Positions 579 through 58,890 of a DNA stretch of 64,000 nucleotides are shown here, piece by piece; the stretch's first letter is position 1, and each line of letters starts with the position of its first letter. Position numbers and translations under genes: made by a program. Origin of the DNA: Lama guanicoe (lineage: Eukaryota); NCBI GenBank assembly GCA_013239625.1, contig MU053758.1, positions 806,001 to 870,000 on the forward strand, read 5' to 3'. The notes under the pieces were generated by a model that did not search any database, had not been told where the DNA came from, and worked only from the letters and a program-made list of their open reading frames with translations.

Positions 579-695
579 GAGGAGACCACGCTGAAAATTA
601 CTTTGGACAGGACAGCTCTGATGATAATCACAGTGGACCTCATGGCCCGTCTCTCACATCAGATGCACCTTTTTTGTCAGATTATCAGGATGATG
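579..695 (+). CDS. SKAP1: SKAP1 (Src kinase-associated phosphoprotein 1 / SKAP55) internal coding exon (exon 4 by human numbering), phase 1-1, 117 nt
   Basis: Polypyrimidine tract + CAG acceptor (551-578), donor G|GTGAGT (696-701). Translation [38 protein letters not shown] matches human SKAP1 [33 protein letters not shown] recalled from memory. Both splice phases match. Confidence 0.95.
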
Positions 696-23426: not shown

Positions 23427-23663
23427 CCCCCCAGCTTTATTGGGAAATAATTGACAAATATAATTGTATATATTTAAAGCATACAACATGATGATTTCTT
23501 ATACATACTGAGGAATGATTACCAAGATGAAGATAATTAACACATCCATCACCTCACACACTTAACTCTCTCTTTCTTTTTCTTTTTTTTTTTTCTGTTT
23601 TTTTCTTTTTTGGCTAGAATGCCTAAGATCTACTCTGAGCAACTTTCAAGTATAATATTGCAT
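23427..23663 (-). mobile_element. 5'-truncated L1MA-type 3' end with 14-bp target-site duplication
   Basis: 'ccagctttattgggaaataattgacaaatataattgtatatatttaaagcatacaacatgatg...aacacatccatcacctcaca...taagatctactct'. TTTATTATTGCTCT occurs at 23413-23426 and 23664-23677. The right flank reads TT/AAAA on the minus strand. Confidence 0.88.
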
Positions 23664-29399: not shown

Positions 29400-30400
29400 A
29401 TTGATTATACTAACTCTGTTGGTATTGCCTCTGTCTGCGTTATAACCTGAAGTTTGTAAATTATTAGGATAGAGTCAGAATCACAATAGATTGATGCTAA
29501 GAAGTCAGATAATTTCAGGATCTTGTGGGAACTTTCTAGCTTCCACTCTTTTATCTCCTCAGAAGACTTTTTCATGAAAGACGGGGATTAGTGACGACTT
29601 TCTAATGCAGAGTTTGTCTTTAGTTTTTTGTTTAAAAATGACACTTTGAACATGTAGTGCATAATGCATTTGAAAGTCTGTTGCCAAGCAGCTTGAAACC
29701 TAGGGGGCATTGTTGAATTTGAAGGAATAGTGGGTTCAGGGAAGGGGCCAAAAGAAAACTTGAGAAAAATAGAGTAAGACTGAAAGTGTTTTATGATAAT
29801 TAGAATAAAAATTGGTTATCAGAACTTCACGGGTCAGCTTCTGTTCACACATTTAGCTTTCACCTTGCAAAGAAAGGGATGTATCAGGTAATTAGGTCAA
29901 ATCAATGATTATATATCTTTAACTCAAGTGGAAGGGACTGTAATTGTGATGAAATTTGTCTGAAGGGGAACGCATGGGGAATCTTGTCAAAGGTCATGGG
30001 TTCAAAGGGGAAATTAAGTTCAAGGTTCGGTTCCTGTTCACACATCCCCACCAATAGTGCATAGCAAGAAACCAAACAGCCAGTATTTCTCTAAACAAGT
30101 TATTTTATCATTTTGAAATAAGCAGAATCTTCCTTATTCATATCCCTTAAGGGATACAGAATTTAAGCAGTTAAACCTCCTTAACAGGGCATTTTCTCCT
30201 GACATGGACAGAAAGAATACCTCTAATACTATATTTCTTGCTTGTTGGTTTCTTCTTCTTTGTAGCTGCTCACACACAGGACATCCAGCTGCATGGAATG
30301 CAAATAAATAGCCCATCTCCAAGAGATCACGTGGCCACGTGCCCCCTAATGCAAATTCCTGACTTACAAGATAACAATAAAATATTTTAAGTTTAAGATT
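29400..30400. promoter_or_regulatory. Candidate enhancer: DR2 RARE, DR1, DR5-like, RORE, octamers, tandem E-boxes, CTCF-like motif
   Basis: AGGTCAtgGGTTCA 29991-30004; AGTTCAaGGTTCG 30017-30029; GGGTCAgcttcTGTTCA 29831-29847; TAATTAGGTCA 29889-29899; ATGCAAAT 30298 and 30349; CACGTGGCCACGTG 30328-30341. No recognisable repeats. Confidence 0.6.
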
Positions 30401-30440
30401 GGAGGTAACAGGGAGATAGCTAAGAAAGTTGTTTGGGGCC

Positions 30441-30490
30441 CTCCTTCTCTCCCTCTCTTTCTCTCACTCTCTCTCACTCTCTCTCTTCCT
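30441..30490. repeat. CT-rich simple repeat
   Basis: 'ctccttctctccctctctttctctcactctctctcactctctctcttcct'. Confidence 0.8.
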
Positions 30491-31399
30491 GAATTCAGTT
30501 TCCCCTTAAACTTGACAAAGTGGAACCAAAATTCACCTTTGTCTTGGTTATTCTTCTGAAACAAAGGGTCTATTCTTCCTTTTAATGCATGTAGAACTTC
30601 CATTAAGGTTGACCGTAAGCTCTTGCATGGGATGAAAAAAGAAAAAGCCCTCAAATCTTTTCTTTACCCTGGTATGATTTTTAAAGGACAAACAATAAGA
30701 ACATAGTTTCATATAGTGGTAAAGAAATCCTGGCTGAAGGGACGTGGCCTTTAAAAGCCAATGCCCTTTAAACATTCTGGATTCCATGTGTAACCTCAAT
30801 ACATTAAAATTTTTAAGATTGTTTTAATGTTTTAAGAAAGAGAAATATATGCAAGAAAAAATATATAATTGTTTAAAGCAAATCAAGAAAGTTCTTGCAG
30901 ATATTTTTAAAATATTTTTTCACCCAATCAGGTATTACATTTTCAGCTCATAATGTGACACTATTACTGACTGGAAACCAAGAAGCATAACTGGTGAAAG
31001 AAAACCTCATCAGTCTGTTTTGTCTATTCTGCAGGGATCGGTGTATGTGGATCTGCAACCACACATGCCCCAGGACTCCCAACAAACTGGGCTAATATGA
31101 TTCATGTAACAGAATACAGAAATATTTCAAATATAAACATGTGACCAAACTCCAGATGCTTGTGTCCTCCCTAGAAAGATTTTCATTAAAGTAGACTTTT
31201 GCCATAAAACAGGACAAGAAGGCATTTGATGAAAGTCTATCCATATTTTTGCTAATGAATTTCCTTGTGTTTATCACGTCTGATGCTTGGATGGACTTCT
31301 TATCCTGGGGTGTCTTCTTGAACAACTCTATCTTTTTTGTGTCCCAGTAGACATGATTTTGGTCTGTAAACTCTAAGATACTTGCCAAGTTTTAACAGA

Positions 31400-32760
31400 A
31401 AAATAATCTCTGACAGATTGTGATTGATAAACTATTTGGGGATAAACTATTTTGGAATAAACAGGCCTGTGAGTGGAGAACATTCTGGGAGACAGGTGCC
31501 TCACTTGACTGAATGGGTTTGAGAAGGGAGGATAAAGGGCTGGGGCAGTTCACACTCCGGTTTAACTCTAGCAACTAAAATTTCTACCCTAGTAAAATTT
31601 AGAAGTTCAAGGAACAACATTGCCGTGATACTAATGACCTTTGAGGGCGTATAGAGTTCAGAGTTCATTTTCTGTTTACAGCATCCTTTGCTGTTCTCTC
31701 TCTTACCCTTCCCCCTTCAAAAAAAAAAAAAAGCAATTATTTAGGACATTGTGACATTCAGCCTGGCTAATTTTTATACAAAAACAGAGAGAGTGTAAAA
31801 TATAGCAGTTAAGTATTAGTAATGGATAGAACTAGGGGTGCCCAATGTGGAGAGAGGGTATCTCCTGAGCAGTTCAAAGTTCATTCTTTGTTCACATATA
31901 ATGAAAAGTCTTCAGTTATCAGGTATTTAAACCCAAATCAGCAGTTCCATATCCGTAACCTGAGCTGAGTGTTCCTCCATCTAATGGCCATGCTGCTGTC
32001 GTTTGCAGTGAGTTGGGTGACATTCGATTTGTACTCCGAGACGGGAACAGATGGGCTTTCATTGTGAGGCTCCGCCTGTATGCAAATGTGAACCGAGTTT
32101 CACCCGATCCCGGGGCCTGACCTGACCGTGCACATGCATTTACTCAACGTGGCTCAGCCTGGGGGGGCGGCGAAGGGGGAATAAAAAATGGCAATCGGAT
32201 AGTACCAGCGGCAGGTCAAGTTTACCATCCGTCTTTCAGCGGGACTGAGATGGCAACACAGTTATTTAGTTTCAGTGTTGATGTGCGTTGCAATAAACTC
32301 CATCATTTCACCTGTTTATGAACCCAGCCTCGTATGAGATCTCTGTGAAATCAAACAAAGCTGGCAATCAACTCTCTTGTTTCCAGCAGAATGGGGGATT
32401 ATGGACTTTTTTTTTAAGCATCTTTATTTTTTTCCCTAGCCTCACATACATAAATCAATGATTTTTTTTCCCCAGCCCTTTTTATTTCTTACATTGAATT
32501 TATTAATTTCTTATTTGGAGGGAACAAAATACATTTTCCCCAAATGCTTTTTGTTTCAAATTAAGAAATATGATCATTAATGTCAGAATAAACAACCAGC
32601 ATTTTAGATGTCGATTAACTGTTTTGCATGTACCCAGCAATGTACAGTATCTAATAAATCTTACAATTAAATGTGCAGCCCTTCATTAGAGTGAAAATAT
32701 GAACAGCTGTAATCATACACATTCTACTGACAGAGAAAAATTTGGTTTCATTTGTAATTT
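31400..32760. promoter_or_regulatory. Candidate enhancer with CpG-rich core: MEIS+PBX-HOX module, two DR1, two Hox-type DR5, octamer/SOX
   Basis: TGACAG 31411 + TGATTGAT 31421; AGTTCAgAGTTCA 31655-31667; AGTTCAaAGTTCA 31871-31883; minus-strand GGGTGAaactcGGTTCA 32089-32105 and GGTTCAtaaacAGGTGA 32308-32324. CpGs are dense at ~31950-32340. Confidence 0.6.
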
Positions 32761-34327
32761 TTCACACTGGGATAGAATGAGAGATGGATTGAAACAGGAC
32801 TGTTTCTGTAACTGTGGGCTTTTTCTTCACATGTGCAGAAGGACCACAAACCAGTGTCTCTGACTTCAGGGTCTGACAGCAGTGATTTTCCTCAATTTTC
32901 TTCTCTCATGAAAGTAAAATTTCTCTTGGGAAACATATAAGCCCTTGGCTAGAAAACCCATAGGACAGACACCCCCAAACTGTAGCAAATAACAAATTGA
33001 TGCATTTCTTCAGTACATCTGTTCTTTAAGGGGTTCTGTTAACTGATGTCTGAAACTGGCATAAAAGAAAGAGTTGCCAAGAATATAGTGAAAGTTGATG
33101 CATACAGCAAAAGTGCTTCTGGCAACAAAAGACACCGCTTCTGGTTGCACATACGTATTGCTCAGGATGGAAAAGGGGTCTTTTAAAATTGTATTTGTGC
33201 AAATGTGGGCAAAACCAAAGCAGGTTTCCCTTAAAGAAAGGTGCTAAATTGTCTCTGCAAAAGGATTCCTCTCCACTGCCCCTTATTCCAGTCCTCACTC
33301 CAAGGTGCAAGGCCAACATATCAGGATAGCATTTTCAAGCAGTTCTAAAGAGTTAGGCTTGAAATAATTCCAAATAGAAATAAATGATCAGGACTGGGAC
33401 TAGCATTTGTCTACTAGGCACCTAGTAGTAGCTGACAGAGATAATAAAGAATAAAGAGTTGCATGACAGTATAGCAGGTATTAAAAAATGTCAGACTTCT
33501 TCCCTTGGCCATTGAAAATTGATTTGCTTATCTCGCTTGGTCTCTAAATATGTAATTCCATCTATTTGGAATAGGTATGGATGGCATACATGTGGACCTG
33601 TATGTAATATATACATACCGACACATACATATATATTTACATCTATGTATACAGCTCCTTCCTTATACAAACAAGGATTTATGTGAATGCAGGATTTTAT
33701 GTCCACATAAACTTTTGCTCATGGTTGAATTATTGTAGGTCACCTTAAGTTAAGGATATCATTTGTACCCTTAGAAAATTTGTTTGAGAGTTGTCAAGGC
33801 AGTGCTTACAAGGGAATTTGAAATGTTTATTTACTTAAGAAGCGGGGGACTCATGTGTTCTAAGTTTAACAAAAGGCTTAACAAAGTTATATTCTGGCAT
33901 GAGTAAGATACTGAAGTTTTTTTTAATATAGTGAAAAAAGAAAATTACAATCACATTAATTAAAATTACAAAAGTTACAACATGAATATTGTAACCAAGT
34001 TATTAGAACCACCACTTCCAGTTGTTTGCTTCAGTAAAATGACACAATTGCTAAAGTATTATGTAACACAAGCTTGAGAGGTGGAAATCAGTAGTTTATT
34101 TTTTAATATCTGTTGAAAGCAATATCATGAATTTTGAAGAAATGCTTATTTTTTTAAGTTTCTTGAGGAGGAAAAGCTCAGACATCATAAGTTATCCCTG
34201 ATCAGAGCATTCAGGTATCTAGAAAATTATACTCTTTGTGTCTTTACAAAATCCATGAAAGTTCATTTTCCTCAAATGTTTGTGTCACAAAGTACTTGCA
34301 AAAGAGGAGGTATTGAGCTAAAATAAA

Positions 34328-34485: not shown

Positions 34486-35907
34486 CAAATAGCTTTTCCC
34501 CAGAACAGAAAACAGAAAATATGAGAAATTAGGACTCAGACTTTTGGAAAGACCTTCCATGTAATAGGACAAATGATTTGTTTCCCTATGCCTCTTTCAT
34601 CTATAGAAAATTATGATGTGTTCTGTAAAAATCACATTTATGAAATATGGACCTTGTTTCCTAAGCAGCAAGAAGTAAATGTGTACTATTTCTACAACTT
34701 TGAAAGCCCTGCAATATTAGAGATCACTGTTCTTCATCTATGACATGGTGTTGGACGTCTAAGAAAGTACTTCAAAGTCCTCATGAAAACTTCCTTGTGA
34801 GGAAGTTATCAGAACCAGAAAATCTAAACCCTTTTCTTATTCCAAATGCAGAATCCAGTTTGAGTGAGATGAAGTTGTGTACTATCCTAAAAATTGGCCC
34901 TATCTAGTCTATGACTCCAAACAAAATTAGGTTCCTCTAGAGTGTTTTATTATTTTCTGTATTTTGCCCTAAGGTTAGTTAGTCAGTTGTACCCTTGAAG
35001 GGATGAGTGAAGAGAAATTAGGCAGGACACGGAAGTCTTTTCTTTCTCCTGTTTCCAAAGATCAGTTTTGCACTGTATTGTCTTGTACCAGATCTGTGTC
35101 GTGATCTGTTCAATTCACAATGAAATTAATGGTATTTATAGGTCATAATTAGCCTCTGTATCCTAGTCTGCCTGGAGCAGTCAGCAAAGGTGTACACCCT
35201 GTTGGCCTGCAAGAAGGGGTGGGGGGGAGCCACCTTGTGGCTGGAAGACGACCCAGCAGCCTCCAGGACTCTTGCTCTGTTCTGAGCAGAAAGGAAATGA
35301 GGGTAGAAGCCAGAGGTAAATCAGAAATATCAATCACTAAATATTTGTGGAAAGTGGTAAGGGATATAAATAGAATCTATAACTACAATAATACTGAAGC
35401 AGTAGTTGTAAATATACATTATCCTCTTTAATATGACATAGAGTAGATTGAGAACTGAGAAATTATTAAGACCCCCACAAAAAAAAATTGAAAGAAAGAA
35501 TGAAAACATTTAAGTTAAAATTATGTTCATTTTGTAATTCAATAAAGAAATCCCAGAGACATATTTTTAAATTTAATGTTGTTTTCTAAAGCACAGAAAA
35601 AGCCCCACAGACATCTGTTTGCATACATTGTGTGTCAGGCAACATCAGATTTGAATGGAATTTATCTAAATTTTATATGCATGGCTTGATGTAAATTGAA
35701 ATAAATTGTACAGCATACCCTGCATGGACATATTGGTTTTTCCATCGCTGCTTGAACTTTTAACCCCAGGGCCTGAGCCGGTCACATGTTGACCTGTCTG
35801 AACTCTGCTGGTAGATCCAAGTGTGGAAGGCTGACCTTGCCTCCATGGCAACCATAAAGTAGGGTCCATGACTCTTCTCTCCCTTTCTCTCTCTTTTCTC
35901 CACACTC

Positions 35908-42990: not shown

Positions 42991-45900
42991 CCTTTAAAAA
43001 GTATGATTATACATATATATATTTGTCATACCCTAAAGAACCTTCAGAGAACCTTGGGATAATAGCAGTGTCTTGTTCTACAGTGTTTCTCAATGTGCCA
43101 CAGAGTGACTGCCTCCCTCTCTCCCCATCTTCCATATCTGGAGGTTTTCCTTCCTTAGACACCAGAAATACTGAGGTGGAAAACACCATCCCGGATAGGT
43201 CCAAGATAAATGTTCACTTCCTTCAATAGTATAGCGTATGAGTACAAAGGCAAATGCTGGACAGGACACAGACACTACAAAGACAAATGAGAGTCAGGAA
43301 CTTGAGAAAAGGGAAAAGAGGCAGCCAACAAGGACATGTTCCCCTGTGTGTTAAAACTCAGGGAAGAGAAAATGGCAGAAAAACCAAATACACAAGAGTT
43401 TATATCCTGTTCACTGCTGAAATACGTTTATGCTGAGATGTCAATAATCTATGATAGCCCACGTGAAATGAAAATGCTCATATTTATATGGTGCTTTTCA
43501 TCCAGAGAATCCCAAGATACTTTATAAATTATAAACATGAATGCTCCTTATGCATTCTCTAATGTTCTCTATACATGAAGTCCAGTTACTAATGGCCCAA
43601 ATCAAGCCCCAGCTGCCCCCCACAACACTGAATATCTTAAGATTTTTATCAGATCATAGTATTTTTCTTTGAAAAATCCTTTGTATCATAAAGTCTGTAG
43701 TTTACACTATTTGTCCTCTAACATATGCAGCATCTCTCCTACCTACCTCCCTTCCCCAACTAACATGGAAAGTGAATTCAATTAGATTTAAGACAAAGAG
43801 TAATTGCATTGGAAAATAGAAAAAATATCTCATCCCAGAATGATTAAACCCTTTACCTTATAGAGGGAGTTTAACTCTTTCAGGAAAACAGAATCCTGTA
43901 TAATAAATGAATACAGAGATTTGCTAAATGGAAGTGTTATGTCCTGAGTCTAATTCCTCAGTCATCAGTGAGCTCTTTGCTCCAAGGAATAGTGTACTCA
44001 TTGTAAGGTGTGTAAGAAATATAAAATAAAGACTAAGTCAGGTAAGGGTTTTAAAATTTTAACTTTTAACTATTCTTATTTTTAACAGTAAGTGTCTCAA
44101 AATCTAAAACTTATTTGAAACTCTTGGATTCTTGAAAGTGAATTTAATCATCTACTTTCCTAGAATTATGTTGTGCTTTTGGTATCTTGATTTTGATAAA
44201 CCCTTCCACATATTCTTTGAGAACTGGTCCAAGCAGAGCCTGAGTTACCCATGCTACAAAAACTGTTTTGCCAGCAGCTTCTGACTCGTTGCCTGTTGGT
44301 GCTCATTCTGGAACTTTTGCAGAAAGATGATGAAGTACCCTAATGTGACAAATTCTTTTTAGAGGGAGCCTCACAACTTTAGATGACCAATCATAGCAAG
44401 GGATGACATACAGTACTTTCATTTGCAATGCTCCATGTTTGTGGTGGGGAGAATTGCGTCAGTTGCAGGGGAAACTTAAAAGGTGAATGTTAGAGCATCT
44501 GTGAGAATCCAGAATAACAAGTCAAATGTGCAAGTGTAGGCTGCAGCCAGCCTGTGGTGGGGTGGGGCTGTTCAAGGTTGAAGTGCAGCAAACAGAAGAG
44601 GTGCCTTGAACTAAGAAATCTCCCTTCTTGGTCTTTTTCCCACCTATATTATTCAGATATTTCATACCTATCACTGTAGTTTGGCTTAAGTAAGACTGCC
44701 AAAATTTCTGAATCTGGCCCTGTTTTAATACCTTAGCTAAACTGTCCTTTGTAATGGTAAAGTTCTGTAGACCCAAGCCAATATATTTCTGTTTGTTCTC
44801 TTTAATAATCAATAAAACAGGTACTACACATTTTTATGTCGCATTTAGAAAAATTCTAGCAACACAAGGCATTGGCTCAGTTTGACTGGAGTTTCTCACA
44901 GCAGCATGGATTTTTCTCTTTTGAGTAGTGCCCAGACTGAACCGGGGGAGGGGGGTGTTGTTTGTTTGGGGTTTTTTTGTTTTGTTTTGTTTTTTTATGT
45001 GCCAGGCACTGTGCTAACTGCTTTAGATAGATTATTATTATTTAATTGTTTATATCAACACTAAACTTTTAAGTTGTGTCTTGAGCCAGATGTTTTTTAT
45101 CGTTGATGAGACCCTACTTTTAATTGGTTGATGTTCTAACAGGGTGGTAGATCTGATTTTAAAACATAAAGCAAGGGAATAAAAGCTAAATACTTGTCCT
45201 AGAAGTTTTGCTCTACCTGTCTCACCGTATGATCTCGTTTTGTCCCATTCCTAACTGGGGATGTAAAAGCTATAATTCTTTATGAAGTCATTTATATTGT
45301 TCTTTGAGATCTGCTTGTGAAAGGCACTATATAAACTAATCCCAATGTTAATATATCTATATTTTTCCCATATCTTACAAACTCTGTTGTACATAGGACA
45401 GATTCATTTATTTATGATATGTTCTTAGTTTGTTACTCTTAGCCAAATTTGTGTCATGATAAATACTTTAAAATAATAATACACATTAACCAGGGATTAG
45501 AGAGACTGATTTATAGACTTGGAGCAGGAAGAAGAATAAAATAAAACCACCATCTATTTGGGTCATGGAATCAAATAAGTTTAGAAGTTCTAAGTGAAGT
45601 GTTCTTAGTCAAGTCAACAACAAGGTGGGTCACATCAAAAGGAGCATCTGCAATGAAGTAACACAAGGAATTTTTTAAATCTGGAAATGAATGACTTAGG
45701 AAAATTAATGGCTCTTCTAACTCCTTAGACAGAGAGTAGTCCTTTCAAGTTTGATGAAGGTCATTTTCAGGACAGTCTAAGAGAGAGGTTACAGTTCAAC
45801 TTCCACCAGCGGTACTTCAGAAAAGGCAAAACTGGCTTGAGTTTCTGAAGCTTGTTTTTTTTTTAATTAAAGCTAATAAAAATGCAAATACCTATATTCT

Positions 45901-48049
45901 GAATATTTTATAATAATATTTTATATTTTTCTTCCCCCCCAAAGTTATGAATTTATCGCCTTTTCCAAAGACTGGAATGGAGAAAATGCCCACTAACCAA
46001 GATACAGTGAATGTTTGCTAGTGTGTCCTCCCAGCTGCTCATGTAAATCTTTCTTCACAGCAGGATTTGAACAAAAACTCACCACTTAATTGAATAGTTC
46101 AAATGCCACTGAGTAGGAAATTTTAGTAAGACCAGAGTATTTGTAACCTTAAAGTAGATGTAAGTGTTCTGGCAACATATACAGTGTTTTGACATAGCAA
46201 AAAAATGTAAAGGAGTCTTTTGCATTCTGAGGCCAATCATGGGTATTACTTGTTTTAAGACTTTGAAAGTATTCCTTTTATACTGTAGCTGTTTTTTTCT
46301 AACAACAACAACAATAACAACAACCTTGCTTCATTTTCCTTTTTATTTTTGAGCTGTTTGCAACCCCCTTTTGAATAGTGAGAAACAATGCAATTAATTT
46401 TCTCCAGCGCAATCATGCATAGATTTAATAAGCATCCGAAGGTAGGATCCATCTGTAAAGTATGCGTTGCATGCTAAATTACTTCTCTTCTGTGGTTTTT
46501 TTTCTTTCCAAACCTTAATTAATTGAAGAAAAAAAATGTTTATTAAAGTGGGAACAGGCTGGGCTCTGGCTCTCCGCCTCTGGTTCAAAAGTTCATACAA
46601 TTCCCTGAAGGCTCATCTGAATGTGTGTGTCTCCCTCTCACAATCTTTCTTTCTCCGTTTCTATAGTAGGGATGAATGCCTGGAAAAGGTATATTATTTT
46701 GTTCCCAGGATCAATTTTAATAATCTTAACTTGAGTAAACTAATTTATTTGTGTATATAGATTTGCATGTATTATATATGTTTACATAAACAGCATATAT
46801 GCATAGACACATAAATGTGTTATTTATCCATTTTCCTATTGCTTAGAATATAAAACTGATATACTTTCAGTGGCATCTTTAAACAGGATATAGATAGAGA
46901 GCAGGAAGTATAATTCTACAGGTGGATCTCAGACAGGAAACTGAAGGAATTACGTACGAACATAAGCTAAATCCTTATGAATAAATTTAGACCAGAAAAA
47001 AAATATTAAATCTATCCCAAGTAGAAAAATATTTACCCATAAACAAAGAAATGGGAAAACATAGGAAGTGACTCACTCCTGCGAGATGCTTTGGAAACAA
47101 GATATTTCCTGACCTGCAGAAAGTTTTACGTGACCTAGGTGAAAAACAGTAAGTTTTTTGTAAAATAAAAATATTGTTTTCAAGATGGACTCAGAATTTT
47201 TTCAACTATCTCAATCGCTTACCTAGGATGTCATGATCTTTCATATGTTTTTTTCAAAGTATTGCTTTTTTCTCTTTATTGTATGCTATAATTTTTAAAT
47301 CCTTTTTTATTAAAGTAAATACAAGTTGTAGTTTTCATCCAAATTACTAGTTTCTTTTTTGCTTTAAAGTAAGATTCGTTTTCTCCTTTAATACAAGTAA
47401 AGTTTGCACAATCACTTCCAGATTTAGGAGTTGATGGAATCAGAAGGCAGTGCTGAACTTGACTGTGATCTTGCCTTATTGAAGTCTATTTGCCTTTGCC
47501 CAGTCACTTCTTGCAAAGCATGGTATTCACATAGGAGTATAGCAGAGGGCTTTCTACAGGTTGTTTCATTTTCTTTGGAAAATGTACAGGGTACCTAAAG
47601 CCACTGGTCTATTAGTCATTTTAACTTTTTAAAAATTGATGTTTAAGTAAGAAAAAATGAGCAGCATGGAAAACTGTTTTAGTTTGGGATATATACAAGT
47701 TTAGTCCTATTGGCCCTTTTATCACATACGTGCCTACCATCCTATACACTTGCCATGTGAGTGTCAGATGAGCCATGGGGACATTCCTGGAAGGAATTTT
47801 GAGGAATCAGCATTCCATATTTTTTTCTCAAATGTTGCTGCTGCACATTGACATGTATACATTTGGGCCACATCTGCACACTTGTGAATCAAATTACTTG
47901 GAGGTGATGCTGAAATATGATCACCAAGTAACAATTGTAATTAACTTCTTGGAAGCTTGAAGACTGTCACCCACTATGTGCGTATCTATTTGCGTGTATA
48001 CCGTATCATCGTCTCCCCACACCCAACATTCTGTGCTTCCTGGAAGAAT

Positions 48050-48900
48050 CTCACTGTTGCTTTCTGAACAGATTTTGGTTTAGACTTCCTGTGAAATCCC
48101 TGAATTGAATAGCTGTGGGTTTCACAAATTACATGCATGTAAACAACCTACCTTTGAAAGGAGGATGTGTAGGCCCTTTCTCCTATGTGCTTATGTCTCT
48201 GTTGTTGTAGATTGGCGTCCTTTGTGAGCTATTCAGTGACATTTCAGAACCATTTCGCTCTGCAGAAAACCCGCAGTTGTGTTTCTTTAGCTGACACTGT
48301 GGCACTTGCACTCGAAATTGCTAGTTAGAAAAAAAAATTGTTGAGGCCGGTGGCTGTAATCAGCGTTGTTGCTGTCTGTTTCCTCAGACTAATAGCAGAG
48401 CGATCCGAGTCTGAGAGTTCAAACAGAGGTTATCTTTCCCAGGTAGCATCTCGTCCAACGAGAATTTGATTTTTTTCTATAGGACTTTACTCCATTAGAT
48501 TAATGAAATTTCAATGAGAGCCTGGCGCCCCCTGAAGCTTTGTTAAGAAAACAAATGGTGATTCTGTAGGTGTGACAGCTTGCTTGGAGAGTTACGAGAA
48601 GGTGAATACATCCCCACAATCCAGGCAGCCTGGAACACATTGATCTCTATTTAAAGCACCAATCGGATTTTTGTTAATTATAAATGATTGATCTGCAGTT
48701 TTTCCCTCTCTCTCCTCTTATATGTGTGGTTCCCCCTCCTTTCCCCACTTCTAACTTCTTTGCATGCTGAGTGCAGAGCTTTTTGTTTAAAGGGACAATC
48801 ATAGAGAGCAAATTATAGCAACACCCAGCAGCGATGCTATTGTGAATGTCATTGTCAGAACGTTCACTGTTCACCGACTGAGGTGAGCTCTGAAGTAGAT
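48050..48900. promoter_or_regulatory. CpG-enriched, repeat-free candidate conserved regulatory element with CTCF motif
   Basis: Many CpGs in an AT-rich background. Minus-strand GCTTCAGGGGGCGC 48525-48538; T-box/MEIS AGGTGTGACAG 48568-48578; ETS ACTTCCTG ~48084. Confidence 0.5.
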
Positions 48901-56608: not shown

Positions 56609-57795
56609 TTTAATATAGTCCCACTTATTGAGTTTTTGCTTTTGTTGCTTTTGGTGTCATATCCAAAAAAATTGTTATCAAGCCCAATGTCAAGGAGCTT
56701 TTTCCCTATGTTTCCTTCTAAGAGTTGTATGGTTTCAGGTCTTATGTTTAAATCTTTAATTCATTTAGTTAACTTGCAAACCATACATCTGATAAGGGGT
56801 TAATACTCAAAATAAATAAAGAACTCATACAACTCAACAACAACAACAACAACAACCTCAAATCAATTAGAAAATGAGCAGAGGGACTGAATAGACATTT
56901 TTCAAAAAGAGACATACACATAGCCAACAGGTATGTGAAAAGATGCTCAACGTTACTGATCATCAGGGAAATGCAAATCAAAACCATAGTGAGATGTTAT
57001 CTCACAACTATTAGAATGGCTATTATTAAAAAGACAACAAATAACAAGTGTTGGCAAGTTTGTGGAGAACAGGGAACCATGGATCGTTGTTGGTAGGAAT
57101 GTAAATTGGTACAGGCATTGTGGAAAACAGTACAGAGATTTTTCAAAGAACTAAAAATAGAACTACCATATGACCCAGCAGTCCCACTTCTGGGTATATA
57201 GTCAAAGGAAATGAAAAAAGTATCACACAGAGGTGTCTGTACTTATCTGTTTATTGCAACATCATTCACAATAGCCAAGATATGGAAACAATCTAAGTGT
57301 CTATCAACCGATAAATGGATAAAAGATGTGAAAGATATATATATGAAATTTGAGGGCATTATGCTAAATTAAATACGTCAGAAAAAGAAAGACATTATAT
57401 ACAAGTATATAATAACTTATATGTGGAATCTAAAAACACTGAACTCATAGAAACAGGGAATAGAATGGTGGTTACCAGCGGCTTTGGGTAGGGTGGTCAA
57501 AGGGTACAAAATTCCAGTTAGAAGATGAGTAAGTCCTGGGTATCTAATGCACAGCATTGTGATTATAATTAATGATACTGTCTTATATACTTGAAAGTTG
57601 CTAAGAGAGTAGATCTTAAGTATACTCACAACAAAAAAGAAATAGAAATTACATGATGTGATGGAGATGTTAGAAAATGCTACCTACTATGGTGATCATT
57701 TTGCAATACATAAGTGTATCAAATCAACACATTGTATACCTTAAGCCTACACAATGTTATATGTCAATTATATCTCTATAAATCTGGAAGGAAAA
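56609..57795 (+). mobile_element. L1MA-type LINE, 5'-truncated with 5' inversion, 15-bp TSD
   Basis: Sense L1 ORF2 end/3'UTR from ~56773 ('ttgcaaaccatacatctgataagggg...catcagggaaatgcaaatcaaaacca...tgtcaattatatctc'). 56609-~56770 is antisense L1. TSD AAAGGAGAGTAGGTG 56594-56608 and AAAGGAAAGTAGGTG 57796-57810. Confidence 0.92.
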
Positions 57796-58890
57796 AAAGG
57801 AAAGTAGGTGGAAATAAGCCTTTGCACTCCTCTCCTAGAATCACTTCTCCCATCTTATTCACTACTTACTCAGAAATGGCTCGAATATTTTGCTAAATGC
57901 TTCTTTTCCCGTCCCTAACAACATTGTAAAATCAAGCAAATACTCCAAAAGAATATTCAGAGATGGCTGTGAAGATTTGGAAAGCTTAGAGAGTGAGTAT
58001 ACTGAAAGCATAAAAAATGGCCCTCCCTTTGTGTCAGTAGAGGCCTCAGGCTTACTAGGAGAGAACTCTCCATTTAATTGCTTTGCAGGCTAATCTATAC
58101 CTCCATGTCTTGCAATATGACTTCCATAAATCTCAAGCAACTAAGAATTTCGGTATGCACTGCCCGCCATCTGATGCTGAAAACTACTGATCTGGTAACT
58201 TGATCAGAGTTTAATGACTACTGTGAGGGATTTTTGTTGAGCTGTGAACAAACCCAAATTCTTTCAATCATATCATGTGTGTCTGTGCCAGACTCTTTGG
58301 CAGCCCATGAAAGCCAGGTCCTCCCAGATTTGGCTAAAGTCCAGTTTTCTTTAAGATTTCCAAGCTTCCAGAAATGCTAAAATATATACTGGTTGACACA
58401 GATATCATGTCCTCTAGTGTAAGGTGAGAGTGAAATTGTCACAATGTCTGAATCCCTGAGTTACTTATAGAAAAGGGACATATCTAATATTAGTGTGTTT
58501 TTTCCCACACTGGGCCAATTGTGCTTTTCAGAAGCAATTTATGATCATGGTGATAGAGTACATCTGAACATAGAAGTCACCTATGTATTCACATTCAAGC
58601 CTGCTTCACAGATGACCACTGCCAGAATTGGCAGAGCCCTGCATAGGCCCACGTGCCTCTGAGTACACTGAAAGGAATGACTATTTCATAAATAACCTAT
58701 GCTAAGATGGCAAACAATTTTTCCTGCATGTTCGGACAACTACCCATGAGTGGTCTGCTTCAGTGTTTCAAACTCACCATGAAGTTTCTATTTGACTTAG
58801 AATGTCTTGAAGAAACTGACCTCCACAAATTATTCCTTATCTTTATTAGCAGTTATAAATGACCTATAAATGACCTACTGTAAAATATAC

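Follow-up and report, generated by a model that had tools for sequence, protein, structure and literature searches.

A 64,000-nucleotide stretch of the guanaco genome (Lama guanicoe, contig MU053758.1; the window, whose numbering is used throughout) contains a non-random cluster of nuclear-receptor motifs in an intron of SKAP1, which is likely the mammalian orthologue of the retinoic acid receptor (RAR) sites described in skap1 intron 4 and probably serves as a long-range enhancer of the anterior HOXB genes. We put the probability of this reading at about 0.7. The clustering of DR1, DR2 and DR5 motifs goes beyond chance and is specific to RAR spacings. Binding of the cluster by RAR/RXR and its responsiveness to retinoic acid (RA) are predicted with high confidence, and HOXB is, with good probability, its main target.

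The host gene is identified by a coding exon at 579..695 on the plus strand (117 nt, about residues 60-99), located by a splice-site scan and protein matches; 41 matches were found among 44 candidates, and most of the named ones were SKAP1, with 65-87% identity. The number of this exon within SKAP1 is taken here as an assumption. A tblastn search with six full-length proteins found no further SKAP1 exons elsewhere in the 64-kb window, leaving one long SKAP1 intron after this exon (no exon across 63 kb), which is intron 4 in the annotation of the skap1 papers. The exon and the tblastn search thus confirm the host gene named in the initial annotation, and the motif cluster begins 29 kb downstream of the exon. 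The HOXB genes lie outside the window.

A coding explanation for the cluster was rejected, as no long open reading frame speaks in its favour. Searches found neither an Rfam match (scanned over 30000-64000) nor, in the whole window, a tRNA gene. The region had been called repeat-poor; within the scope of TRF and self-BLAST, it holds a TC tract at 30441-30487 and a 15-mer at 31426-31462, and there is no second copy of it in the window. Stop-to-stop frames here measure 91-109 aa in the three that overlap 30.1-30.8 kb and 99 aa in one that overlaps 31.1-31.4 kb. A shared-word search gave 22 matches to parts of 29.4-33.0 kb, and several other organisms share 0.26-0.55 of the words of this interval; these matches were not counted as conservation.

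The motifs fall into four modules: A (29.8-30.0 kb), B (31.65-31.9 kb), C (32.1-32.3 kb) and D (35.75-35.8 kb). All elements of modules A and B are on the plus strand. Module A opens with the first copy of a composite element (29824..29849), a DR1-like motif with one mismatch overlapping a DR5-like motif whose last half-site, TGTTCA, is unusual in the 3' position of a DR5. It continues with a DR2-like element with one mismatch (29886..29899), a perfect DR2 (29991..30004) and a second composite copy (30017..30042), 193 bp downstream of the first. Module B holds composite copy 3 (31655..31680), consisting of a perfect DR1, 5 nt and TGTTTAC, and copy 4 (31871..31896), a perfect DR1 overlapping a DR5-like motif 216 bp past copy 3. 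Module C lies within 31951..32350, the 400 bp with the highest CpG content in the window (19 CpG). It comprises two inverse DR5s on the minus strand, both perfect under the RGKTSA core, of which the first (32089..32105) embeds an ER2-like pair and the second (32308..32324), 219 bp further on, has its spacer covered by a forkhead core; between them lies a plus-strand DR0-like element with one mismatch (32213..32224), which is weak by itself. Module D (35753..35804, minus strand) combines a DR2/DR1-like element (35753-35766), an IR5-like element at 35779 and a perfect DR3 (35790-35804). By crude consensus patterns, modules A-D contained no CTCF core, no MEIS and no notable PBX-HOX pattern.

All ten motifs listed in the initial annotation were recovered at their positions, with partial overlap among them (31871 with 31878, and 29831 with an unlisted DR1-like motif at 29824). 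The cluster was confirmed in the range proposed for it, 29400..32900, but extends further, to 35.8 kb, as module D lies outside that range and corresponds to the third mouse RAR/RXR peak (see below).

We searched both strands of the 64 kb for pairs of RGKTCA at DR0-5 spacing with at most one mismatch in total. Eleven of the 27 elements fall in 29824-32324. After merging overlapping elements, 29.4-32.9 kb contains 8 DR1/2/5 elements, compared with 0.92 after local dinucleotide shuffling. This count of 8 is also that of the best 3.5-kb interval, and it was reached by none of 400 shuffles (maximum 6) and none of 300 order-4 Markov sequences (maximum 4), which bears out the proposed excess over shuffled background. 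Among 720 column permutations, the true half-site ranked first. Control spacings were not enriched (no DR3/4 in the region; 3 DR6-10 against 1.2 expected). Under the RGKTSA core, as defined in PMC4446430, the window has 7 perfect DR1/2/5 elements (1.17 expected), 5 of them in the region, and perfect DR2/5 alone were as numerous in 1 of 300 nulls.

A chance pile-up of motifs in an AT-rich intron, or a functionless relic of local duplication, would agree with some of the counts: single half-sites exceed the shuffle mean only about twofold (17 against 8.7, shuffle maximum 16), the best 3.5-kb interval without the four composite copies holds 4 elements, the same as the Markov maximum, and over the whole window there are 18 DR1/2/5 elements, not many more than the 12.75 of the average shuffle. 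The modest enrichment of single half-sites means, however, that the signal resides in their pairing, and the null sequences and permutations above, the divergent flanks of the composite copies and the fit to mouse ChIP peaks all stand against this explanation, which is largely refuted and exceedingly improbable.

The mouse data come from RAR/RXR regions in F9 cells, with centres on mm9 chr11 at 96438303, 96440440 and 96444043, all classed as RA-dynamic (clusters E, G and G). These centres project to window positions 29997, 32097 and 35759 with an error of at most 30 bp, at this single locus only, and fit the elements at 29991, 32089 and 35753; the inverse DR5 at 32089 is 29 bp off the projected centre of the second peak. 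Two of the peaks were fitted post hoc; the position of the third had been predicted in advance from module A. An equally good fit of the peak spacing was found in 1.6% of 5000 random spacing pairs, and the reversed peak pattern fits as well, loosely, at a tolerance of 75 bp. The strongest RA-dynamic peak projects to 29739-30239, spanning the whole of module A with the perfect DR2 at its centre, and a 1043-bp peak in a conserved element projects to 31391-32433, spanning modules B and C with both minus-strand DR5s. A fourth peak, weak and non-dynamic, would fall at about 49.2 kb, where the nearest DR5-like element is 750 bp away. At the place predicted for the good motifs at 45.8-46.6 kb, the F9 data show no peak, indicating that binding does not follow from motif quality alone. 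The peak table was fully covered for 96436-96440, 96443-96444 and 96453-96456 kb, and in part beyond (the first 9 of 13 places in 9645x, the first 9 of 14 in 9646x, hardly any in 9647x). Spacing, orientation and intron make the cluster a likely orthologue of the mouse and zebrafish skap1 intron-4 RAR sites, an indirect argument in which the spacing carries the weight.

The four DR1 sites of the region proved to be copies of one 26-bp composite, in which a DR1 is followed by a pyrimidine-rich 5-nt spacer and TGTTYAC, at an identical offset in all four. They form two pairs, with offsets of 193 and 216 bp between the members. Their cores share 17-21 of 25 letters, their flanks just 5-14 of 40, and these unrelated flanks are unlike a plain duplication. 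A duplication of module A into module B was rejected: the alignment is confined to the core, 4 of 284 random segments equal its score, and the flanks are at background level. This unit was not found in the literature that we searched, nor is it described in the accessible part of PMC4446430.

DR1 elements are known for a ligand-insensitive polarity of RAR/RXR and are common to other nuclear receptors. Composite sites, too, are common to other nuclear receptors, according to PMC4446430. Modules A and B might serve mainly other factors, which would weaken or confine the response to RA, with module C as the only classical RARE; the candidates would be NR2F/COUP-TF, HNF4 or RXR homodimers on the DR1s, ROR/REV-ERB at 29886 and forkhead proteins on TGTTYAC. 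The fixed offset of TGTTYAC in every DR1, the full forkhead core in one copy (TGTTTAC, 31655..31680), the unusual TGTTCA half-site and the promiscuity of DR1 favour such a view, which we nevertheless consider distinctly unlikely. The strongest RA-dynamic mouse peak covers all of module A, and three of the four copies read TGTTCAC, which suits a receptor half-site better than a forkhead core. The retinoic acid-related orphan receptor element (RORE) reported at 29889 matches the consensus that we take for it (an AT-rich extension followed by RGGTCA), but the window contains 2 such matches against 1.99 expected. Its reading as a ROR/REV-ERB monomer site was rejected as chance-level; the same letters also make up the DR2-like element at 29886-29899, which presumably resembles the Hoxb1 3' DR2. 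A literature search for the string of this DR2-like element found no paper.

A more specific role for the composite, as a distinct three-half-site retinoid switch that was kept or rebuilt four times and sets the RA threshold of long-range HOXB activation, is tentative and rather unlikely. In both registers RXR would take the central half-site, and RAR would bind on its upstream side (DR1) or on its downstream side (DR5, activating); alternatively, a forkhead protein would sit at a fixed distance. Selection retaining or rebuilding the unit four times would then tune the threshold of RA input to HOXB.

The reading of the region as a distal retinoid-responsive HOXB enhancer is right in outline, apart from its chance-level RORE, and is not new, given the published RAR sites and the spacing of the mouse peaks. 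The idea is essentially known and was proposed in 2021 (Lopez-Perez, PMC8608873), and the composite adds one testable motif puzzle. For both zebrafish and mouse, that work describes four strong RAR sites within intron 4 of skap1, the second carrying a conserved inverse DR5-like motif, for which the inverse DR5 at 32089 appears to be the best candidate in the window. A DR5-RAR-skap1:GFP reporter was induced by RA and silenced by BMS493, in a pattern resembling hoxb1b; the RA-responsive fragment measures 812 bp, and the accessible text describes no half-site mutant. A Hi-C contact with hoxbb genes is given as unpublished ("not shown"). Gene, long intron, several close RAR sites, the inverse DR5-like motif, mouse peak coordinates that fit our modules and HoxB as the proposed target, at a distance of over 200 kb in mouse and human, are shared with the guanaco cluster. 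The species differ, and one DR5-like motif is described there, whereas the DR2s, the second inverse DR5 and the four-copy composite are not listed in the accessible text. Two published zebrafish primers matched the window best outside the cluster (17/24 and 15/22) and were uninformative.

The cluster could also be a true RARE cluster with SKAP1 itself or a local transcript as its main target and HOXB as incidental. In zebrafish endoderm, skap1 is RA-induced (log2FC 3.87 and 3.64) and reduced after BMS493, the distance from the skap1 start to the RAR peaks is 5-12 kb, and one mouse peak is annotated in a 3' UTR, which implies a local transcript at that place. Because of this 12-15-fold induction, a pure bystander role of SKAP1 is unproven: the behaviour expected of a genomic regulatory block, in which a distant gene responds without the host, holds in mouse F9 cells and fails in zebrafish endoderm. 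In RA-treated F9 cells, however, Hoxb1-b9 were induced and Skap1 was not in the list of changed genes, the zebrafish reporter mimics hoxb1b (PMC8608873), and embryonic Skap1 is confined to blood progenitors at E7.0-7.75 (PMC9286507). We therefore regard SKAP1 as a quite improbable main target.

In favour of the anterior HOXB genes as targets, 4C shows increased contact between the Hoxb1 side and the Skap1 region in E9.5 embryos (PMC9286507), and deletion of another SKAP1-intron enhancer reduces HOXB7/8 in human cells (PMC8017555); the literature on Skap1 and HoxB yielded no mammalian deletion of the present element. According to the paper tables, the first mouse peak is 209 kb from Hoxb1, zebrafish hoxb1b is 14 kb from skap1, and the SKAP1-HOXB linkage is kept across vertebrates (mouse and zebrafish). 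RAR/RXR would bind the cluster in response to RA, and the cluster would loop to HOXB promoters, act as one among several long-range enhancers of anterior HOXB genes and contribute measurably to their expression.

Comparable elements are known. H-AR1 by Heater, 3' of Hoxa1 (De Kumar 2015, PMC4510006), also lies 3' of a Hox cluster and has several DR motifs, and RARs and RXRA occupy it over 2.5-2.6 kb; it differs in belonging to HoxA, in being linked to a lncRNA and in its location outside a SKAP gene, some 50 kb from Hoxa1. The Skap2 e-site (Su 2019, PMC6649716) is an enhancer in the SKAP paralogue with an anterior Hox partner: it loops to Hoxa1, carries Rara peaks and is required for induction by RA, as demonstrated by capture-C and deletion, neither of which we found for the SKAP1-intron cluster, and it overlaps the Skap2 start site rather than intron 4. 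The rs9303542 enhancer (PMC8017555) is SKAP1-intronic, and its deletion or activation alters HOXB genes, but it acts in ovarian cancer cells on HOXB7/8, with no retinoid link described in the accessible part. Finally, in Chatagnon 2015 (PMC4446430), overlapping DRs with a common central half-site are frequent under RAR/RXR peaks, an ER2 embedded in a DR5 occurs as at 32089, DR0 with DR2 or DR5 (DR8) is stressed, and DR1 is called unselective.

The present analysis adds a base-level mammalian map of the sites to mutate, the extension to 35.8 kb and the repeated composite motif. If the enhancer reading is right, RA would act on the anterior HOXB genes from afar, by way of a multi-site enhancer in SKAP1, as well as through the Hoxb1-adjacent RAREs, an arrangement that would mirror the SKAP2 side of HOXA and help to explain the lasting linkage of SKAP1 and HOXB.

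Direct repeats (DRs) of the receptor half-site RGKTCA, scanned at 0-5 nt spacing and allowing no more than one mismatch overall, numbered 27 across the window, 11 of them within 29824-32324. All ten motifs of the initial annotation, which had described a retinoic acid (RA) response-element cluster here, were present where it had placed them. Once overlaps were merged, the 29.4-32.9 kb region held 8 DR1/2/5 elements, compared with 0.92 after dinucleotide shuffling within 2-kb blocks. Eight elements in the best 3.5-kb window were matched by 0 of 400 such shuffles, anywhere along the sequence, and by 0 of 300 order-4 Markov sequences. The true half-site ranked first among its 720 column permutations. 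Control spacings in the region showed no enrichment (DR3/4, 0; DR6-10, 3 vs 1.2), and lone half-sites were enriched just twofold (17 vs 8.7 under the shuffle null). Under RGKTSA, the receptor core used in PMC4446430, both minus-strand DR5s are perfect, and five of the window's seven perfect DR1/2/5 elements lie within the cluster region. The motif cluster is real. The RORE (ROR/REV-ERB site) that had been counted as part of the signal drops out, being at chance frequency (2 in the window vs 1.99 expected).

Removing four copies of a composite unit reduced the best window to 4 elements, equal to the Markov maximum. This 26-bp unit, overlooked in the initial annotation, comprises a DR1, five mostly pyrimidine letters and TGTTYAC, and its copies lie at 29824, 30017, 31655 and 31871. 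A repeat finder, unprompted, grouped the four as one family with 73-85% identity to the reference. TGTTYAC stands at that offset in four of the window's seven DR1s with at most one mismatch, the other three lacking it, and in those same four when up to two mismatches are allowed (n = 56). Seven of eight columns are identical throughout the four copies, which 0 of 300,000 random quartets equalled in a post hoc test, the motif having been spotted first and 35 quartets being possible from seven DR1s. The copies are paired at 193 and 216 bp, and the two inverse DR5s are spaced 219 bp apart. Copy-to-copy identity is 17-21 of 25 letters in the cores and 5-14 of 40 in the flanks; because the cores are alike and the flanks are not, either the unit has been under selection or an ancient duplication has kept nothing but the unit. 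A partial copy at 43397-43414 has a half-site with one mismatch, 5 nt and TGTTCAC, the upstream DR1 half being missing.

Read as receptor sites, the unit would be a DR1 and a DR5 with a common middle half-site. In a DR1, RXR occupies the 3′ half, and in a DR5 the 5′ half; it would therefore sit on the middle half-site whichever register is used, an arrangement suggestive of a toggle. Alternatively, the last part of the unit may be a forkhead site, matched exactly in one of the four copies. Composite elements are known as a class (PMC4446430 section 24; PMC4591280), and this unit was not found in the literature covered, mostly the text of papers free of subscription. A three-half-site switch, repeated four times, is an unlikely reading.

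The host gene was recognized from a 117-nt exon at 579-695, located by a splice-site scan, whose translation matches 41 of 44 candidate proteins, most of the named ones being SKAP1. Whale and bat proteins match best (81-86%), and human SKAP1 matches at 68% with a five-residue gap; the five extra residues at the exon start also occur in cattle, peccary and pangolin proteins, as well as in those of whale and bat. The match pattern suggests a placental mammal outside the primates. With six full-length SKAP1 proteins as queries, no further SKAP1 exon was found in the window, which places the cluster ~29 kb into an intron of >63 kb. From the known exon structure, together with mouse-peak annotation, we take this to be SKAP1 intron 4. 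HOXB lies outside the window.

Lopez-Perez et al. (2021, PMC8608873) reported four strong RAR sites within intron 4 of skap1 in both zebrafish and mouse. In that paper's tables, two mouse peaks fall in conserved elements, the mouse annotation reads 'intron 4 of 12', zebrafish peaks 590-593 lie within 2.7 kb and peak 594 is marked as highly conserved. The second site is described as vertebrate-conserved, with an inverse-orientation DR5-like motif. An 812-bp fragment drove GFP in the gut and posterior hindbrain, in a hoxb1b-like pattern that increased with RA and was abolished by BMS493, while Hi-C contact with hoxbb genes is given as 'not shown' (PMC8608873); the bioRxiv version agrees. The cluster is probably this already known element found again in a further mammal.

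Orthology to mouse was judged by peak spacing. The two mouse peaks in conserved elements correspond to RAR/RXR-bound F9-cell regions centred at mm9 chr11:96440440 and 96444043 (PMC4446430, supplement 6). Their 3603-bp gap approximates the separation between the inverse DR5s (32.1-32.3 kb) and a motif group at 35753-35804 absent from the initial annotation, a fit made post hoc. This fit predicted a third peak near 96437-96438 kb for the 29.8-30.0 kb group; the F9 table contains one, centred at 96438303 and the strongest (PMC4446430). Slid along the window, the three-peak pattern fits a single locus with errors ≤30 bp, pairing 96438303 with the perfect DR2 (29997), 96440440 with the first inverse DR5 (32097) and 96444043 with a DR2/DR1-like site (35759); 1.6% of 5000 random spacing pairs fitted equally well. 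A 1043-bp mouse peak projects onto 31391-32433, covering the modules at 31.65-31.9 and 32.1-32.3 kb. Against orthology, reversing the pattern still gives a fit when 75 bp of error is tolerated; a fourth mouse peak, weak and non-dynamic, projects to ~49.2 kb, 750 bp from a DR5-like element (48416) and ~130 bp from a DR3-like one (49033); and the F9 table has no peak at 96453-96456 kb for good motifs at 45.8-46.6 kb. By spacing, the cluster is likely orthologous to the published mouse sites, and, of the two inverse DR5s, that at 32089-32105, which lies within the window's most CpG-rich 400 bp, is the stronger candidate for the published motif.

Other elements were also observed. The segment 48150-48600, second in CpG-richness (12 CpG per 400 bp), contains the DR5-like 48416-48432 and is a possible further module, near the projected weak peak and the DR3-like element. 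At 45758-46595 lie a DR5-like (45758), a DR1-like (45786) and a perfect DR2 (46582) element, beside a second RORE match (45555). An isolated minus-strand DR5 at 58860-58876 is the window's sole perfect one under the strict RGKTCA core, with no mouse peak among the F9 table rows listed. Between the modules at 32.1-32.3 and 35.75-35.8 kb, a DR5-like element (33737) and a perfect RGKTSA DR8 (33723) share a half-site within 33723-33753. Self-BLAST gave one interspersed repeat pair, inverted (23431-23654 and 57586-57787; 76-82% identity), probably two copies of a single old mobile element.

The RA-dynamic clusters to which these three F9 regions were assigned are E, G and G, denoting sustained (2-24 h) or maximal (24-48 h) classes (PMC4446430), and by published coordinates the first peak lies 209 kb from Hoxb1. 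In F9 cells Hoxb1-b9 are induced, and the changed genes include Skap2 but not Skap1. Compared with ES cells, E9.5 embryos showed more contact with the Skap1 region in 4C from the Hoxb1 end (PMC9286507), and deletion of another SKAP1-intron enhancer lowered HOXB7/8 (PMC8017555). Comparable cases on the HoxA side are a Skap2 enhancer with Rara peaks, which loops to Hoxa1 and is required for its RA induction (PMC6649716), and H-AR1, which spans 2.6 kb, contains several DR motifs and is bound by RAR/RXR (PMC4510006). One study of undifferentiated ES cells took an unmarked control region from within Skap1 (10.1101/111773), which speaks neither for nor against an enhancer. The chief contrary fact is that zebrafish skap1 rises 12-15-fold with RA, which shows that SKAP1 can be more than a bystander. 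The distal retinoid enhancer proposed initially is largely right and likely the published element, with HOXB its probable target in mammals; the bystander role given to SKAP1 agrees with F9 expression and fails in zebrafish endoderm. No deletion of the element was found in the literature on Skap1 with HoxB. Taken with F9 expression, 4C and the SKAP1, SKAP2 and H-AR1 enhancer cases, the RA-dynamic mouse regions point, with a probability of roughly 70%, to a multi-site RA enhancer working with nearer RAREs (RAR/RXR elements) on anterior HOXB. Such an enhancer would loop to HOXB and may affect its expression.
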